Virus record (IMG/VR): IMGVR_UViG_3300032267_001142
Coordinates: 96,001-160,000 of that record
Length of the DNA stretch: 64,000 nucleotides
From: a virus
Strand: one strand, 5' to 3'
In this document: positions 3,482 to 58,522 of the stretch, piece by piece
Numbering within the stretch: position 1 is the stretch's first letter
Layout: each line of letters starts with the position of its first letter
Position numbers and translations under genes: made by a program
The notes under the pieces: generated by a model
The model's database searches: none
What the model was told of the DNA's origin: nothing
The model's input: the letters and a program-made list of their open reading frames with translations, nothing else

Positions 3482-5635
3482 TTAAGCTTCACATGATTTA
3501 CAGGCCAAAATGCTTCTTCCTAGCTCTTGGGCGGGAGACGTGCTTCTCTGATAATACAAAGTTTTTACTCCTAATTTCCAAGCCTCAATCAGCAACGCGT
3601 TGACTTCTTTTACTGAAGCTTTTGGATGAATCATTAGATTGATTGACTGAGACTGGTCAATATATTTTTGGCGTTGAGCGGCTTGAATGATGATTTCTTT
3701 TTGGCTAATCTCTCCGAAGGTTTTGAAGACATCCCTCTCGTTGTCAGTCAAGAAATCGAGATGCTGCACTGAGCCGTCGTGAATGAGGATGTTTTGCCAT
3801 ACTTCCTGAGTATCCTTGCTGTGCTTTTTAAGCACTTCTTTCAAATATGGGTTTTTGTATGTGAATTTGCCTTTGGCCAAGTCTTTGACGAAGTAGTTAG
3901 AGTTAAGCGGTTCGATTGATGGGGAGACCTGCCCCAGAATGAACGAGGATGACGTTGTAGGGGCTATCGCCATCGTCGTGACGTTACGCAGCCCATAACC
4001 CTTCAAAAGCGGTGGCTCGCCAAATAGAACGGCCCTAACTTTATTAGCTTCGTGGTTTCTTTCGGCCAAGAACTTGCTGATTTTCACGTTCCACATTTTT
4101 GCGTCGAATGACTCAAAAGCAATGCTTTTTGATTGAAGGAACGAGTGCCAGCCTAATGTTCCCATTCCTAGGGCGCGTTGATTGACGGCAAAGCGGTATG
4201 CAGCTTCCATGAAGCGGATGCCTTTAACTTTGTCGATGTATTCCGACATGACCGCGTCCAAAAAGAGCGCGAAGACTTCTACCGCATCCGTCTGCATCCA
4301 TTCTTCTGCATGCAATAGGTTCATTGAACCTAAATCGCAAACAAAAGACTCGTCCCTATCTGAAGCTAGGGCTATCTCAGAACAGTTATGAACTAGGATG
4401 TTGTTCGCGAAGAAATTTTCAGTCTTTTCTACTGTGATATCGTAAACGGCTTCGACGTGAGTGTATCTTTTAATTTTTAGCGTATTAATGAACCGCTCAG
4501 ATAGTCCCGAAGCATTACCGTTAGCACTTTGTCTAAGAATATCGTCTTCTTTTAAGTCCTGCGCTTCAACGTATCCTCGGTTTTGTGTGTAGATTTTATG
4601 TTCAGGCGTGCATTTTATGACGTTGCCTTGCTCGTCCTCAATTTCAATAATTTCCGTCGACTCTCCCGTTTGCGAGAAGAGCTTAACCGAAGAATAAACG
4701 TCCTTGCCGGTTTCGATGTCAAAGGATTTTACTTCTACTGGTTTATCCATGTAAAAATCCAAATCCTTCATTCGGACAGTTAGTTCTTCACCTTCTACAC
4801 GAATTTGGACTAATGTATCGCCGGTCAGACACAGGTTGGAGGCGTGAATCTTCATTCCTTTATCTTTGTAGACTTGCGGGGCGTTGTTGTTCACCGTGTC
4901 CGAGAACATGATGTAAGGATAGCCAGACTCAAATCTCTTCTTGATGATTTTCGCCCAAAGCTCGCGCTTGTCTTTGTCGCCTGAAATCATGGACTCCATC
5001 CACGCATCGGAAACCGTGACGCCGATGCTCATATGTTGGATAGCGTGACCCTCGTTGCGAATCTGTAGAAACTCGGCAATATCTGGGTGTTCGACGGGAA
5101 GATACGCCGCAAAGTTGCCACGACGAACTCCAGACTGCGATACGACTTCAGTAATTACGTCATATATCTCCATGAAATGAACGGGACCGCTAGAGCGTCC
5201 ACCACCAGAAACTTTAGCGCCGCGCTCACGCAATGCCCCGAAATATCCAGAAGTGCCGCTGCCGTGCTTCGACATCATTCCTATCTCGGAGGCTTTATAG
5301 AGAATCTCCCCCATATCATCTCCGATATAAGAGCCATTACAACTAATCGGAAGTCCTCTTTTGAGGCCGAAGTTCGCCCACACCGGAGAGGCTAAAGAGT
5401 AGTAACCTTTCTTCATGTATCCGACGAACTTCTCCGCGAAGCCTTTTAGCGCTTCGTAGTCGGTGTCGCCGCTTTCGACTTTTCCATTACGGAAGTCTTC
5501 ATAGTCTTTCAGTAGAATCGCTTGGGCAGCGTCAGCTATCTCCTGAATGCGGACTTCTGGAGACTGTCCATTTTGCAAATATCCGCGCTCAAGAAATGTG
5601 CGGGATTTTTCGTTAAGCCAATAAAAATCTTTCAT
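3482..5635 (-). CDS. nrdA: Class Ia ribonucleotide reductase alpha subunit, intein-containing
   Basis: GLPISC, RRGNFAAY, SNL/CSEI, AIAPTTSSS, C-terminal CKSCEA; adjacent to nrdB. Confidence 0.95.
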   Translation of the reverse strand: MKDFYWLNEKSRTFLERGYLQNGQSPEVRIQEIADAAQAILLKDYEDFRNGKVESGDTDYEALKGFAEKFVGYMKKGYYSLASPVWANFGLKRGLPISCNGSYIGDDMGEILYKASEIGMMSKHGSGTSGYFGALRERGAKVSGGGRSSGPVHFMEIYDVITEVVSQSGVRRGNFAAYLPVEHPDIAEFLQIRNEGHAIQHMSIGVTVSDAWMESMISGDKDKRELWAKIIKKRFESGYPYIMFSDTVNNNAPQVYKDKGMKIHASNLCLTGDTLVQIRVEGEELTVRMKDLDFYMDKPVEVKSFDIETGKDVYSSVKLFSQTGESTEIIEIEDEQGNVIKCTPEHKIYTQNRGYVEAQDLKEDDILRQSANGNASGLSERFINTLKIKRYTHVEAVYDITVEKTENFFANNILVHNCSEIALASDRDESFVCDLGSMNLLHAEEWMQTDAVEVFALFLDAVMSEYIDKVKGIRFMEAAYRFAVNQRALGMGTLGWHSFLQSKSIAFESFDAKMWNVKISKFLAERNHEANKVRAVLFGEPPLLKGYGLRNVTTMAIAPTTSSSFILGQVSPSIEPLNSNYFVKDLAKGKFTYKNPYLKEVLKKHSKDTQEVWQNILIHDGSVQHLDFLTDNERDVFKTFGEISQKEIIIQAAQRQKYIDQSQSINLMIHPKASVKEVNALLIEAWKLGVKTLYYQRSTSPAQELGRSILACKSCEA
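4385..4831 (-). mobile_element. Mini-intein (149 aa, no endonuclease domain) in NrdA
   Basis: Starts CLTGDT, block B CTPEHKIY, block F VYDITVEKTENFFANNILVHN, followed by Cys; removal restores the SNLCSEI active-site motif. Confidence 0.93.
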
Positions 5636-14489: not shown

Positions 14490-15623
14490 ATGACACCGTC
14501 ACTTTCTGATAGAGCGGACCTAATCGTATTGCGGCATCCGATAGTTCACGATAAATATACACAGGCCGCGCAGCAGATGTTTGACGTGCCTCACGCCGAG
14601 GAAAGCGTTACAGTTATTCAAAACGAGCTGACGATGCCGACTTCCGATTGGAACATCGGGCTTATTCATGGTCCGAGCGGTGCAGGAAAGTCTACTCTTC
14701 TTCGCCAATTCGGGAATCCCAAGACTTTCGCGTGGGACGCTCAGAAATCCGTGATAAGCCACTTTGACAACGTGTCTCCAGAAGAAGCAGCGGCGCTGCT
14801 TTCTTCGGTAGGATTTTCTACGGTTCCTGCTTGGCTCCGTCCGTATCATTGCTTGAGTGTCGGGGAAAGGTTCAGGTGCGATTTGGCTAGAGCCGTGGCA
14901 AGCGATGATACTATCATTTTAGTCGATGAGTTTACTTCTGTAGTCGATAGGAACGTCGCTCGCTCAGCCTGCGTGGCGCTTTCAAAACTAATACGCAAGA
15001 CCGGCAAAAAAATTATTCTGGCCTCGTGTCATTCGGATATAATTCCTTGGCTTTGCCCTGACTGGAGCTATGACCCTTCGGAGGCTGTGACCCACGAGTA
15101 TGCTCGTGGGAGCCTTCAACGCCCCGACGTTCATCTCAAAGTATTCAGAACAAAATATGAGGCGTGGCACCTATTCAGCAAATATCACTATCTGAGTGGA
15201 GACCTAAACAAGGCCGCTCGATGTTTCATGGCTACGTGGAATGACGTGCCGGTAGCTTTTTGTGCTATCCTCGCAATGCCTAATCCATACAAGAAGAATT
15301 GCTGGAGAGCCTCACGCACAGTAGTATTACCTGACTATCAAGGTTTGGGCATCGGAGTTAAGTTGTCAGACTATATGGGTTCATTAGTCAAAGCTGGCGG
15401 TGGAGTATATTATTCAAAGACTATTCATCCAGCCCTCATCGCTCACCGTTTGAAATCTGGTAAATGGAAAGAGACCTCCCATAGCCGTCAAGCTCGTAAT
15501 CCTTCCAACGAGTCAATGCAAAAAAGAAATTGGTTCGTTAGCCCTAGATTCTGCTACGCTTTTGAATATACTGGAGAGCCCGCTACAGAAGGGGCTGATA
15601 ATATCTTCTGGCAGAAATGCTGA
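14490..15623 (+). CDS. ABC-type ATPase fused to a GNAT-like acyltransferase
   Basis: GPSGAGKS Walker A, LSVGERFR signature, ILVDEFTS Walker B, then RTVVLPDYQGLGIG acyl-CoA motif. Confidence 0.85.
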   Translation: MTPSLSDRADLIVLRHPIVHDKYTQAAQQMFDVPHAEESVTVIQNELTMPTSDWNIGLIHGPSGAGKSTLLRQFGNPKTFAWDAQKSVISHFDNVSPEEAAALLSSVGFSTVPAWLRPYHCLSVGERFRCDLARAVASDDTIILVDEFTSVVDRNVARSACVALSKLIRKTGKKIILASCHSDIIPWLCPDWSYDPSEAVTHEYARGSLQRPDVHLKVFRTKYEAWHLFSKYHYLSGDLNKAARCFMATWNDVPVAFCAILAMPNPYKKNCWRASRTVVLPDYQGLGIGVKLSDYMGSLVKAGGGVYYSKTIHPALIAHRLKSGKWKETSHSRQARNPSNESMQKRNWFVSPRFCYAFEYTGEPATEGADNIFWQKC

Positions 15624-30908: not shown

Positions 30909-31098
30909 AGTTTTTCAAAAACCTGTTGACCTTTTCAAAAAAGGCAGTAGAGTGAGTGAAGTAAAGGGAAGCCGCCCTAAACGCAAACGGCGAAAACGAC
31001 CATAGAGAGTCTAGCATTAAAATCGGCCAGCTAGCGCCCCTGTCGGATAGCTTGTAAAAAGCTTAAAGATGTTTGTTATTTGCAGTGGTAGTTATTAT

Positions 31099-36080: not shown

Positions 36081-36154
36081 GCTCGGCTAGCTTAATGATA
36101 AAGCAAGCCTCTCTAAAAGGTCGTATCTCGGTTTGAGTCCGAGGTCGAGCACCA
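36081..36154 (+). tRNA. Amber suppressor tRNA (anticodon CTA)
   Basis: GCTCGGC/GTCGAGC, D arm GCTT/AAGC, loop CTCTAAA, T arm CTCGG-TTTGAGT-CCGAG, ACCA. Confidence 0.82.
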
Positions 36155-42841: not shown

Positions 42842-43815
42842 ATGCGATTGAGACAGGAAACTCTCTCGAAAGCAACAAAAGGGGGCATGACCTCTTAGAT
42901 AACGCGCCGCAAGGCGAAGAAAGGCTGAAAGCCCTACATTTTCAGCCGCCGTTTACGGTCACTTATGCAACCGTAGTTCCTCGGTTTACAATGCCAAACA
43001 TTGTGGACTAGACTATCGAGGTTCCGGCGTCCCGAAAGGGGCGTTTCCAGACGTGAAACTCTGGTAAACGGGTTCAAACTTAAATAGTCGAGAACGAAGC
43101 GTAGTTGTTTATGTCGAGCCTAGCAAGCAAGACGCGAACAGCAGCCCAAACGGGAGTGGACTCGTGAGAGTTTATGACCGAGAAAGCCGTCGAAATCGCC
43201 GCTGGCGAAAGATATCATGTTGTGTTGTATTGGGTGGTCGAAAGGTCATCTAGCGACTGGACAGACGCAACATAATAGGGATAAGTATTTGGAACTTACA
43301 AGAAAAAGTTCTGTCCACGTTAGCGCGATAAGCAGATTAAGTCGCTGGCCTTCGGGCAACAGCGAGCGTTAAACCTCTCAAGGGAATAACGTTTGGCGTC
43401 AGAGTAAGATTGGTTGGCCTTTAGCGGGGTTAGCTGAGACGAAAAAACGCTGAGTAGCGCGACGGTTAATGGATATGCTACCATTCAAAAGCATCTGTGA
43501 GAAATAGCGGTCGAAAGGTCGCTGGATAACAAGATAACACATACGTCTTGTAAAGGTTCTCGAATCGAAGCATAGTCTCAGCTTTGATAATTTGGTCAGC
43601 GGGCGAGCTATTTGAACGCAGTCGTTTGCAAAACTTCTATAGCAAGGTGAGATTCCTTGGCTGACCTCCATCTCATCAGTAGCGTATTACGCTAGTTTGG
43701 CTGCGGCCCATTGGGTCGCGAATTAAAGAGTTCGGGTTGCTCTGAGCTTAGTAGATTGGCAGGACGGAGGTAATAATATCCGCGCTTGTTAGTTGCTGGA
43801 CGGGGAGTTAGCCCC
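42842..43815 (+). ncRNA. Large (~970 nt) highly structured non-coding RNA, GOLLD/ROOL-like or novel
   Basis: No + strand ORF of 60 aa or more; own promoter; many GNRA/UUCG hairpins and long-range helices; ends just before tRNA-Ala(CGC). Confidence 0.7.
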
Positions 43816-52976: not shown

Positions 52977-53022
52977 CGGATAAGTGTTGACCTTTTTCTA
53001 AAAGGGGATACAGTGGTTAGTA

Positions 53023-53312
53023 ACGCAATCGCTAAGCGACTCTACGCGCAATGCCGTAACCAGTGCGGTAAAGTGAGGAAAGTTCTTGGCAGCCGAGAGA
53101 ACGACAGGAGAGCGCCCGCTAGCAATAGCGGCGTTCGTTAATACTGCAAGTTAGCTGCAACCCGAACAGTCCGATGGTAGCTCTCCCAAATGAGGACGGG
53201 TCGGGGCGGTAGGATTCACACCCTACGGGCGCTGTAAAGCGTTCAGTCAAATGTAGAGTTGAAGTCCCGCAAGGGACCAGACCAGAACCGAGGCTATAGC
53301 TAGCGATTGCGT
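53023..53312 (+). ncRNA. rnpB: RNase P RNA (290 nt, reduced specificity domain)
   Basis: P1 ACGCAATCGCTA/TAGCGATTGCGT; P2 CGACTCTAC/GTAGAGTTG; GAGGAAAGTTC and CAGAACCGAGGCTAT with covarying P4 (TCTTGG/CCGAGG); P6-, P15-, P18- and P19-like helices. Confidence 0.9.
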
Positions 53313-53354
53313 ATCTTTTCTTACAAATAATGATTATTAAGACTAACAGGTGAT

Positions 53355-53579
53355 ATGGCAGCTAAAAGAAAGCCCGCACGAGGCAAGAAAAAGCTAAATA
53401 AGTCCGCTCTTAAAGAAGGGCTTGAGGCGGCACGCTCATTGACTAGAGAGCGATGGATGCATGAAGTAACGAGCGCCCTTACTTTCCTTCTGACAGGTAA
53501 AGACGACGAAAGAATCGTCCGACTATGTGGGGCTCTTCAAGACGCTATACGCTGGAGCAACTTCAGCGACGATAAATAA
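53355..53579 (+). CDS. Small hypothetical protein
   Basis: ORF with basic N-terminus. Confidence 0.6.
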   Translation: MAAKRKPARGKKKLNKSALKEGLEAARSLTRERWMHEVTSALTFLLTGKDDERIVRLCGALQDAIRWSNFSDDK

Positions 53580-53944
53580 TGACTGTCAATAATACGAAAC
53601 TCAATCTCTTGATTGCGGAGCTAGGAGGATGGAAGGAACTGCCCCAACATGAATTTGTAAAAGTGTATCAACCTTGGCAAGCGAAAGTTTATAGCAGCAA
53701 ATATAAGCACATCCGAAACTATGGAGCTTCACTTGACGCGTGTGCCGAATTTGAGAAAAGCTTGACCGCTTTACAAAAACTGAAATTCGCTTTCGTTCTT
53801 TGCAGCGTTGTGGGTAGTCAAGGAATGCAACACGGTATGCTAGTAGAAGATGTGAACCGAATCGCGTTTGCAACGCCAATCCAACGCTGCCTAGCATATA
53901 TCCGCACTGTCGCGCCAGAACGAGAGAAGGAGATTTACGATTAA
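53579..53944 (+). CDS. Hypothetical protein (ABA-sandwich-like), similar to 42458..42802
   Basis: GW...NY..SLDAC.EFE..L...ATP.QRC.AY. Confidence 0.7.
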   Translation: MTVNNTKLNLLIAELGGWKELPQHEFVKVYQPWQAKVYSSKYKHIRNYGASLDACAEFEKSLTALQKLKFAFVLCSVVGSQGMQHGMLVEDVNRIAFATPIQRCLAYIRTVAPEREKEIYD

Positions 53945-53987
53945 ACTCTGCTCTTGTGCCTTTTGTAAAACTAAGTAAAGTCTGATA

Positions 53988-54443
53988 ATGCTAACTGTCT
54001 ATCCGCCCGATTACGGGCCGCACCACGATTATCCGAGCGAGCCAATCGGGGAAGGAAACCCGTATTATCAATGTTGCTCGTGTGGAGCCTCAGACCCGCA
54101 AATAAACGGCACCCTTAGTGGTCATAAGGGCGGTTGCGGCTGGGTTGCCGGTTTCCAAAAAGGATGGCAAGAGCGCTACTACGATTCGATGATTGACTGC
54201 GCCGCTATTCGTGGTCCCGATGGGCGGGTCTGGACCGGCAAGCGGCATTACCACTGTATCAATACAATTATCCAAGCTACCGGCGTAAAACAGGTTGCCG
54301 AAGGATACGAACAGGGGTTCGTTACCATGTCTGGGCGATTTGTTACGCGCAGAGAGGCAGGACAACTTGTGCAAAAAACTGGACAGGTAAAAGTGACACC
54401 ATACAACCCAAAGCTTGAACTTTTCAGTGAAAATTTATATTAG
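53988..54443 (+). CDS. Hypothetical protein
   Basis: AAI.G.DG.V.TG.RH...QGFVT..G.FV.R.EA...LFSENLY. Confidence 0.7.
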   Translation: MLTVYPPDYGPHHDYPSEPIGEGNPYYQCCSCGASDPQINGTLSGHKGGCGWVAGFQKGWQERYYDSMIDCAAIRGPDGRVWTGKRHYHCINTIIQATGVKQVAEGYEQGFVTMSGRFVTRREAGQLVQKTGQVKVTPYNPKLELFSENLY

Positions 54444-54514
54444 TGAGTTTCTGATTCAAAAGCCCCGTTGCTTTATAGTCTTGCGTCTTCGGTAAAACCC
54501 GCCAATCTTCCGTC

Positions 54515-55018
54515 ATGACTTTTTCTCTCGACATGACTCTCAAGTATGACCCTACTGATGCCCGCGCTACTCGCAAGGGTTTTCAGAAGTGGTGGGCTAT
54601 GGCGCTAGCGCCAAAGGGCTTACACGACTACTACGCGCACTGGTTGATGAAGACCCACGGCGTCAAGCTTACGCTTCCGCTATGGGGCGTGCATCTTACG
54701 GTTATCCGTGGAGAGTTGCCTCGTCATCTGCGTAATTGGCGTAAGTATGATGGGCAGACCTTCCGAGTGTATTACGACGGCTCTGACCTTCAGTATTCGG
54801 ATAAGTATGCGTGGCTACCCGCGCATTCTCCTGATTTGGAGGCGGTTCGTCGTGAACTTGGGCTTCGCTCGCAGCCGAAGGTAGCTTTTCACGTTACTTT
54901 GGGTAATCGTAAAAATCTGGAACTTCCGAAGAAGAGGGTTTTTAATCCAGTCGTTTTCCCTTGGGAAAAGCACAACTTCGAGTCCTACGAATATCGAGAG
55001 TTCTCCCCCGCGAAATAG
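54515..55018 (+). CDS. 2H phosphoesterase family protein
   Basis: Two HxT motifs: GVHLTVIRGE and FHVTLG. Confidence 0.75.
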   Translation: MTFSLDMTLKYDPTDARATRKGFQKWWAMALAPKGLHDYYAHWLMKTHGVKLTLPLWGVHLTVIRGELPRHLRNWRKYDGQTFRVYYDGSDLQYSDKYAWLPAHSPDLEAVRRELGLRSQPKVAFHVTLGNRKNLELPKKRVFNPVVFPWEKHNFESYEYREFSPAK

Positions 55019-58108: not shown

Positions 58109-58522
58109 GGGGTAGCAAGGATTCGACAAATAAGACGAGTCTAAACCCGCAAGCCGCTTATGGTAGTTAGACTGCGTCAAATCTCTACCAAGCATAAACG
58201 TCTCAAACGTAATTGCAAAAGTGAAGACCGCTTGGAGCGCCTTCCGTAATAACCTTACGGTTGCCTTCGGGAGCTTTTCGCCCGTCGTGGCCTAATCACG
58301 GCCACCCGTATCATTTCCGATTTCTGCTAGGACTTAGATGCGACATTAGCAGGATTTACGAAATAAGTTCGCATATTCTTATTCGTCACATACGATATAC
58401 GCTGTGGTCAGTTAGGTTTTGTCATTTTAGACAACTGGCCGAAAGCAAAAAAGAAACTAAGCTTGTAGAAGGTCTGATAAAAATTGTTTGGACAGGGGCT
58501 TCGATGCCCCTCTACTCCACCA
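58109..58522 (+). ncRNA. ssrA: tmRNA (414 nt); tag ORF 58215-58295, AKVKTAWSAFRNNLTVAFGSFSPVVA*
   Basis: GGGGTAG/CTACTCC acceptor with G3:U70, 5' GGATTCGAC, 3' GACAGGGGCTTCGATGCCCC...ACCA; GCA resume codon after TAATT. Confidence 0.92.

Follow-up and report, generated by a model that had tools for sequence, protein, structure and literature searches.

A putative, highly divergent RNase P RNA gene downstream of the tRNA array of a large phage

The locus and its genomic setting

The DNA analyzed here, referred to below as the window, is a 64,000-nt stretch corresponding to bases 96001–160000 of a virus record that is complete at 186,105 bp and has terminal repeats. This 186-kb phage carries about 50 unusual tRNA genes, and the region between 30.8 and 45.6 kb of the window is a tRNA array in which 24 tRNAs were predicted by ARAGORN and 16 at the Rfam threshold. 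The candidate RNA occupies a 378-nt gap (52977–53354) whose longest ORF is at most 43 aa, with a metallophosphoesterase gene on one side and a 2H phosphoesterase gene on the other. It thus falls within an RNA-metabolism block consisting of the tRNA array, a GOLLD RNA, the phosphoesterases, and a tmRNA, and lies 7.4 kb past the last tRNA (45610), outside the array and among genes of the RNA-repair type. The GOLLD RNA (RF02032) was found inside the array at 43215–43584, where it scored 150.6 bits against a cut-off of 150, and a tRNA predicted by ARAGORN at 43594–43670 starts 10 nt downstream of it.

The phage appears isolated among sequenced viruses. No match to the 378-nt gap was found among GenBank phages by blastn. 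In IMG/VR, exact 15- to 16-mers from conserved regions CR-I and CR-V retrieved 41 loci, every one of them a chance occurrence, canonical P4 strands at short spacing gave 0 matches, and the flanking proteins and the terminase used as queries retrieved no relatives. Two neighboring proteins compared with 5.8 billion proteins matched only themselves, and a tblastn search with the terminase against GenBank phages reached only ~24% identity, to Bacillus phages. These searches thus yielded no relatives in which covariation in the candidate RNA could be followed.

We placed RNase P elements by reading the sequence against the Rfam consensus lines of types A and B (local numbering, 1 = 53023; all features are on the plus strand). 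The predicted gene spans 53023–53312 and is bounded by the two strands of helix P1. The length of 290 nt given in a first-pass annotation of this DNA agrees with these boundaries. The predicted fold is strong, at –114.8 kcal/mol (z = –4.66), a stability reached by 0 of 200 shuffled sequences. The G+C content of the candidate is 55%, compared to 47% for the genome. P1 consists of 12 Watson-Crick pairs between 53023–53034 (local 1–12) and 53301–53312 (local 279–290). P2 pairs 53037–53045 (local 15–23) with 53253–53261 (local 231–239), a helix counted by script as 10 bp. P3 (53047–53075, local 25–53; 3 + 7 bp, loop ACCAG) folds as a hairpin containing an internal loop in both the MFE and the centroid structures. 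Nested within P1, P2, and P3 in the canonical order is CR-I (GAGGAAAGU, local 53–61), which through GAGGAAAGU is identical to the consensus derived from 87 bacterial genes and which, together with the 5′ strand of P4, covers 53075–53089. P4 is formed by local A59–G67 with C266–U273, through the strands UCUUGG and CCGAGG, and has a bulged U at 53083 (local U61). The 3′ strand of P4 is contained in CR-V (CCAGAACCGAGGCUAUA, 53282–53298), which reads CCAGAA-CCGAGG-CU-AUA.

In the 3′ half, P15 (CCC/GGG) encloses a 15-nt L15 loop, AAAUGAGGACGGGUC, at 53185–53205 (local 163–183). The loop contains a GGU motif; in RNase P RNA, this L15 motif binds the CCA end of the tRNA. The L15 module (CCCAAAU...GU.GGGG) was aligned by a type B model, and no A-rich J5/15 linker could be placed. 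An extra hairpin, GUAGG-AUUCACAC-CCUAC (53209–53226, local 187–204), lies between P15 and P18 at the position of type B P15.1. P18 (53227–53244, local 205–222) has 7 bp and is capped by a GUAA tetraloop, which the type A consensus also has. It is followed at 53245–53252 by J18/2 (CR-IV), AGUCAAAU, which corresponds to AGAugAAU in the type A consensus and to AGAuAgAU in that of type B. A P19 hairpin, GUCCC-GCAA-GGGAC (53264–53277, local 242–255), is situated between P2 and P4, the same position as P19 of type B. P1, P2, P4 (UCUUGG/CCGAGG), P15, P18, and P19, all proposed in the first-pass annotation, could thus be placed by reading the sequence and by folding. P6, also proposed there, was not found in the candidate, and the P5/7 helix could not be confirmed: the pairing GAGAG/CUCUC is only one among several competing options.

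A local hairpin, UUCUUGG-CAG-CCGAGAG (53083–53099), has a predicted stability of –6.0 kcal/mol and competes with the P4 duplex (–5.8 kcal/mol). Its CCGAGAG strand nearly repeats CCGAGG, the 3′ strand of P4. The hairpin might act as a switch or a folding trap, or it might be the trace of a duplication.

Upstream of the gene is a σ70-like promoter, TTGACC-16-TACAGT (52987–53014), with an A-rich spacer and 9 of 12 matches to the consensus. The predicted transcript start (~53021–53023) coincides with the first base of P1. The pattern TTGAC-N16-19-TAnnnT was matched 20 times in the window, compared to 8 ± 3 expected, and none of 100 shuffled sequences reached 20. Promoters of the TTGAC...AAAA...TAnnnT class precede tRNA genes and the GOLLD RNA (at 30926, 33619, 36937, 38371, 42808, and 44476) as well as the candidate RNA, and this common promoter class suggests that the candidate is co-expressed with the tRNA regulon. 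Ten promoter-like sites on the plus strand between 28430 and 63874 of the window fit TTGAC-N6-10-AAAA-N3-7-TAnnnT, and several of the spacers are palindromic, such as CCTTTT...AAAAGG at 30926 and 52987. These A-rich-spacer sites may represent a class of phage promoters whose spacer contains an operator. Between the candidate RNA and the next ORF, we found no terminator.

We also searched the phage genome for a Ribonuclease_P domain or an RnpA-like gene and found none. The two small proteins encoded just downstream of the candidate were considered as possible cofactors and set aside, as P0003 resembles NinX-type phage proteins, P0002 matches nothing, and neither is RnpA-like. The earlier suggestion of a host or phage protein subunit thus narrows to the former: with no RnpA-like gene in the phage and neither downstream protein resembling RnpA, a host subunit is a reasonable guess.

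Departures from known RNase P RNAs and the likelihood of chance resemblance

Score-based methods did not recognize the candidate. With the Rfam models of type A (RF00010), type B (RF00011), and archaeal (RF00373) RNase P RNA, searched at 901-nt, 300-nt, and per-genome scale, the candidate was below the gathering threshold and was also not matched at E ≤ 10. The alignment to RF00010 suggested in the first-pass annotation therefore had no match to build on. The archaeal model matched another part of the window (14684–14787; 10.5 bits, E = 0.07 per genome), which is probably noise. Of two nhmmer profiles built from the catalytic segments (5′ and 3′) of 87 bacterial rnpB genes, one gave E = 46 and the other no match. 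A covariance model made from 15 type B 3′ halves did not rank the candidate in the window and aligned its P15/L15 module alone, and a model made from the candidate itself found no bacterial rnpB gene and also missed the phage comparators described below, with filters on or off. RNA genes of this kind are thus missed by covariance-model annotation.

A looser pattern scan gave locus L169, and a three-motif pattern applied to IMG/VR and metagenomes gave 118 matches, of which only one, L261, was genuine. The L169 RNA (3934–4196, minus strand) is a 263-nt RNase P RNA located between tRNA-Asp and tRNA-Ser genes of a 175-kb IMG/VR phage; it scored 112 bits with RF00010 and is without P12–P14 and P18. 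The L261 RNA (566–830) is 265 nt long, scored 175 bits with RF00010, is without P12–P14, and sits in a dense tRNA cluster. As both pass Rfam, phage-type tRNA clusters do contain genuine reduced RNase P RNAs. Three further loci (L166, L171, and L172) hold sequence identical to the L169 RNA. The array of the L169 phage has more than 20 tRNAs, many of them with U56 (UUUGAAU), and a tmRNA with a 28-aa tag. L261 (1–3068) is the metagenome contig Ga0315273_10161776, with 10 tRNAs by Rfam and 8 by ARAGORN, all 8 of which encode CCA. The candidate resembles these comparators in its setting, a large phage or phage-like contig with many tRNA genes nearby and, for the L169 phage, a tmRNA, and in being shorter than the bacterial genes through loss of specificity-domain helices. 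Unlike the candidate, the comparators pass Rfam, keep P7–P11 and a 5-bp P4, and sit within the tRNA array; the candidate has no Rfam match, no P7–P11, and a 6-bp distal P4, and it lies downstream of its array.

Since Rfam scores the reduced L169 and L261 RNAs well despite their loss of specificity-domain elements, the core of the candidate must itself be divergent, and several departures from the bacterial pattern can be named. The distal segment of P4 is 6 bp in the candidate, with two G-U pairs, compared to 5 bp in both comparators and in all of 94 bacterial genes. In CR-V, where bacterial genes have ACAGAAC..GGCUUA, the candidate has CCAGAAC-CGAGG-CUAUA, so that CAGAAC and GGCU are kept, whereas the initial A has become C and the UUA is altered, with CUAU standing for CUUA. 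The core also has a U as the third base of J18/2 and no A-rich J5/15.

The candidate combines features of both bacterial types. Like type A (RF00010; E. coli M1 RNA/rnpB), it has the P1–P4 topology, the CR-I sequence GAGGAAAGU with the bulged U, comparable L15 strands (AAAUAGG and CGGGUA in type A, AAAUGAGG and CGGGUC in the candidate), a P18 with a GUAA loop, and correctly placed J18/2 and CR-V. It differs from type A in its failure to match RF00010, in lacking P16, P17, P6, the P7–P11 cruciform, and P13/P14, in having a 6-bp rather than a 5-bp distal P4 with two G-U pairs, in its L15, which the loss of P16, P17, and P6 leaves as a closed loop, in the extra hairpin after P15 and the P19 hairpin, and in length (290 nt vs. 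~377 nt). With type B (RF00011; B. subtilis), it shares a closed P15/L15 hairpin (CCC-loop-GGG-GC), a hairpin at the P15.1 position after P15, and a P19 between P2 and P4, and the nearest terminase relatives (~24% identity) are from Bacillus phages. It differs from type B in having no RF00011 match, the type B 3′-half model scoring the L15 module only, in lacking P5.1, P10.1, and an L15.1 of the GGAAAUGAAC type, and in having an L18 loop like that of type A. Archaeal type T RNase P RNA from Pyrobaculum and engineered E. coli ribozymes consisting of the C-domain only are reported to cleave pre-tRNA with little or no specificity domain (PMC13462272, PMC5839562), and in the E. coli constructs the C-domain alone is reported to be catalytically competent (PMC5839562). 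These RNAs differ from the candidate in ancestry and in protein partners, and the comparison concerns the possible mode of working rather than membership in the same family.

Because the models failed, we asked how often the motif set would arise by chance, using a descriptor built from features common to bacterial types A and B. It requires GAGGAAAGT, then CA(G/A)AA followed immediately by a strand complementary to the 5–6 bases after the bulged U and by CU, a P1 of at least 7 bp, and a P2 of at least 5 bp. The top level of the descriptor was reached by 79 of 120 bacterial rnpB loci and, among the three GAGGAAAGT sites of the phage genome, only by the candidate. When CR-I was planted in random sequence, P4 pairing arose in 28 of 60,000 trials, and P1 and P2 were also present in 12% of those contexts, which amounts to ~6 × 10⁻⁵ per site. 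As controls, we used 113 real non-RNase P sequences from the pattern scans that contained CR-I, CCAAAT, and CARAAC at the right spacing. The P4 complementarity present in the candidate occurred in 0 of 113 controls, and the Watson-Crick P1 was at most 9 bp in the controls (median 5), compared to 12 bp in the candidate and 5–15 bp in bacterial genes. The P2 helix is 10 bp in the candidate, and the bacterial mode is 8 bp. In P4 complementarity, P1, and P2, the candidate was therefore inside the range of 94 bacterial genes and above the controls. The presence of the L15 and J18/2 motifs strengthens this result. We conclude that a chance origin of the motif set is not tenable, even allowing for the size of the scan.

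The central region and the tRNA elbows

In the place of the specificity domain, the candidate has a central region of 95 nt (53090–53184) that contains a CR-II-like sequence, ACAGGAGAG, and two UGCAA pentads. We refolded this region with the core helices fixed and with P4 and L15 held single-stranded. The only robust helix was the GCAA-capped hairpin at 53110–53136 (local 88–114), with pair probabilities of 0.97–1.0; all other pairings had alternatives. This hairpin is the one that the first-pass annotation had called P12. An AACGA/UCGUU stem that had also been proposed can be drawn, but it partly competes with the robust GCAA hairpin. The P7–P11 cruciform was not found in the 95 nt by constrained folding, and no P8, P9, P13, or P14 was found in the central region, as the first-pass annotation had noted. 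We also looked for the double T-loop module of J11/12–J12/13 (CR-II and CR-III); ACAGGAGAG resembles CR-II, and no opposing strand was found. The specificity domain of the candidate RNA is thus very probably non-canonical. The central region also contains a direct repeat, CUGCAA-GUUAG-CUGCAA (53144–53161), in which each UGCAA fits the T-loop motif U-G-N-R-A, and its UGCAAGU is identical to the T-loops of four phage tRNAs. We considered mimicry of the T-loop heptamer by the central region and rejected it, as the heptamer was not enriched in the genome (25 copies vs. 22.7 expected).

The tRNAs themselves have the non-canonical elbows that had been reported for them. G55-C56 was present in 18 of the 24 clustered ARAGORN tRNAs, with positions 54–56 reading UGC in 11, AGC in 4, and CGC in 3, and UUC in 0 of 24. 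C56 was kept in at least 20 of 25 phage tRNAs, and the D-loops, read by eye, have A at position 18 and keep G19. Nearly all of the phage tRNA genes encode CCA. A lone tRNA-Met gene, located outside the window far from the array (genome 5538–5612, minus strand), is the only phage tRNA that combines a canonical UUCGAGU T-loop with the lack of an encoded CCA.

The outer G19:C56 platform of tRNA is the surface on which RNase P, the L1 stalk, and T-box leaders stack when they dock (PMC3664808). Because C56 and G19 are retained, this docking platform is probably kept in the phage tRNAs, and, judging from the tRNA genes, the elbow change lies in the inner 18–55 layer. The comparators also argue against a pairing of unusual elbows with a reduced RNA. 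At L261, 5 of 8 tRNAs have G55 (T-loops UGCAAUU, UGAGAUU, and UGCAAAU) beside an RNase P RNA with an ordinary P7–P11, and at L169 and L171, mostly canonical tRNAs (mostly UUC or UUU) accompany the reduced 263-nt RNase P RNA. Reduced RNase P RNAs thus accompany G55 tRNAs as well as canonical ones, an observation that, with three genomes, is no more than indicative.

There is also another rationale for G55. The Cash defense nuclease cuts the T-loop at UUC, and single mutations of U54 or U55 abolish cleavage; its authors leave open whether phage tRNAs are targets (PMC13462974). Evasion of Cash-type enzymes, TruB, and TrmA would explain G55 without RNase P and is likely a better explanation than a matched pair. 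The proposal that the reduced specificity domain is matched to the recoded elbows was thus not borne out, given the retention of C56, the comparators, and this separate rationale, and the negative result shifts attention to defense evasion as the likely reason for G55. It is possible that the candidate RNA is indifferent to the elbows.

Proposed function and alternative explanations

The evidence above points with high confidence to a derivative of bacterial RNase P RNA, whether it still cleaves pre-tRNA, has ceased to do so, or has acquired a new way of reading tRNA elbows. Within this range, the reading that we favor, by a little over even odds, is that the locus is a phage gene for a highly divergent and probably working RNase P RNA that is indifferent to the elbows and boosts the processing of phage tRNAs with the help of the host RnpA. 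Transcription would be driven by a promoter dedicated to the RNA, in the class that also serves the tRNA genes and the GOLLD RNA, and is predicted to start at the first base of P1. The helices and motifs of P1–P4, L15, P18, J18/2, and CR-V are present in the sequence and would fold into the RNase P catalytic core. Because the phage encodes no RnpA, the RNA would borrow that of the host. Pre-tRNAs would be held mainly by the acceptor stem and by the 3′ CCA, which is encoded in nearly every phage tRNA gene and would pair with the L15 GGU. The RNA would then trim 5′ leaders from phage tRNAs and from the tmRNA, providing extra processing capacity during infection. The elbow-measuring domain appears to have been exchanged for the idiosyncratic 95-nt region, in line with a general trend to reduced RNase P RNAs in phage tRNA clusters, and we do not regard this replacement as an adaptation to the A18/G55 elbows.

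The weightiest alternative, which we nevertheless consider unlikely, is that the RNA derives from RNase P but has lost the ability to cleave tRNA and is now either a decaying relic or a decoy or sponge for host RnpA or pre-tRNAs; as a decoy, it could redirect or throttle host tRNA processing. The changes in near-invariant core features (the extra P4 pair with two G-U pairs, CUAU, CCAGAA, the U in J18/2, and the missing A-rich J5/15) are what such an RNA might show, as are the failure of all covariance models on the candidate and the local hairpin that competes with P4. The relic variant, however, fits poorly with a gene-dense genome in which a 378-nt gap keeps a 12-bp P1, an intact GAGGAAAGU, the bulged U, the L15 GGU, and a tRNA-type promoter, since a relic would be expected to lose such features of P1, CR-I, and L15 along with the bulged U. 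The change equivalent to C70U is tolerated in E. coli according to the in vitro selection literature, which also counts against this alternative. The explanation that seems to us least probable is that the locus encodes some other structured RNA with no relation to RNase P, such as a regulator or 5′ leader for the genes downstream (53355–55018), and that its RNase P motifs are present by chance. It would account for the lack of support for homology from any HMM or covariance model, in either direction, and a leader would be compatible with the absence of a detectable terminator before the next ORF. It would leave to coincidence the presence in canonical order of GAGGAAAGU, CAGAA with the P4 complement and CU, a 12-bp P1, a 10-bp P2, L15, and J18/2, a combination far below chance expectation, together with the AG..AAAU of J18/2 adjoining the P2 3′ strand, the CCCAAAU...GGGU...GGG module, and a P4 pairing seen in 0 of 113 motif-matched real sequences.

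The elbows bear on a further possibility, that the central 95 nt read the elbow in a new way and evolved together with the A18/G55 tRNAs, making the tRNAs and the RNase P of the phage a matched and partly orthogonal pair. If so, phage tRNAs would resist host T-loop nucleases and modification enzymes, and a remodeled RNase P with a lengthened P4 would prefer them. The occurrence of A18/G55 tRNAs and the candidate in one genome is consistent with this, the UGCAA pentads fit the T-loop motif within a heptamer identical to the T-loops of four phage tRNAs, and the three GNRA loops suggest new tertiary contacts. We nonetheless judge it improbable, only slightly less so than the unrelated RNA. C56 in at least 20 of 25 tRNAs and G19 in the D-loops that were read argue that the docking platform is probably kept; G55 tRNAs occur beside a normal P7–P11 at L261, and a reduced RNA occurs beside mostly canonical tRNAs at L169 and L171. 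The heptamer is not enriched in the genome, and the Cash nuclease offers an independent reason for G55 (PMC13462974). We therefore retain the reading of a divergent, elbow-indifferent, and probably working RNase P RNA.

Our literature search found no paper describing a phage RNase P RNA gene, reduced RNase P RNAs in phage tRNA clusters, or A18/G55 tRNA sets. Among the RNAs that we examined, the candidate is the extreme case, in which the signature core motifs are kept while features that do not vary in bacteria are changed, with respect to P4 length, specificity-domain architecture, and the closed L15 loop. If active, it would show how far the core of a universal ribozyme can drift and would provide a natural minimal scaffold for the study of RNase P. 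It would also indicate that large phages bring their own tRNA-processing enzyme along with tRNAs, tmRNA, and RNA-repair genes. The tmRNA of this phage (RF00023, 95 bits; 58109–58522) has an unusually long predicted tag of 26 aa that ends in VVA, and its T-loop is the canonical UUCGAU, unlike those of the phage tRNAs. An amber suppressor tRNA (anticodon CUA, T-loop UUUGAGU) is encoded inside the array at 36081–36154, and a phage with such a tRNA may read through or recode TAG during part of its cycle.
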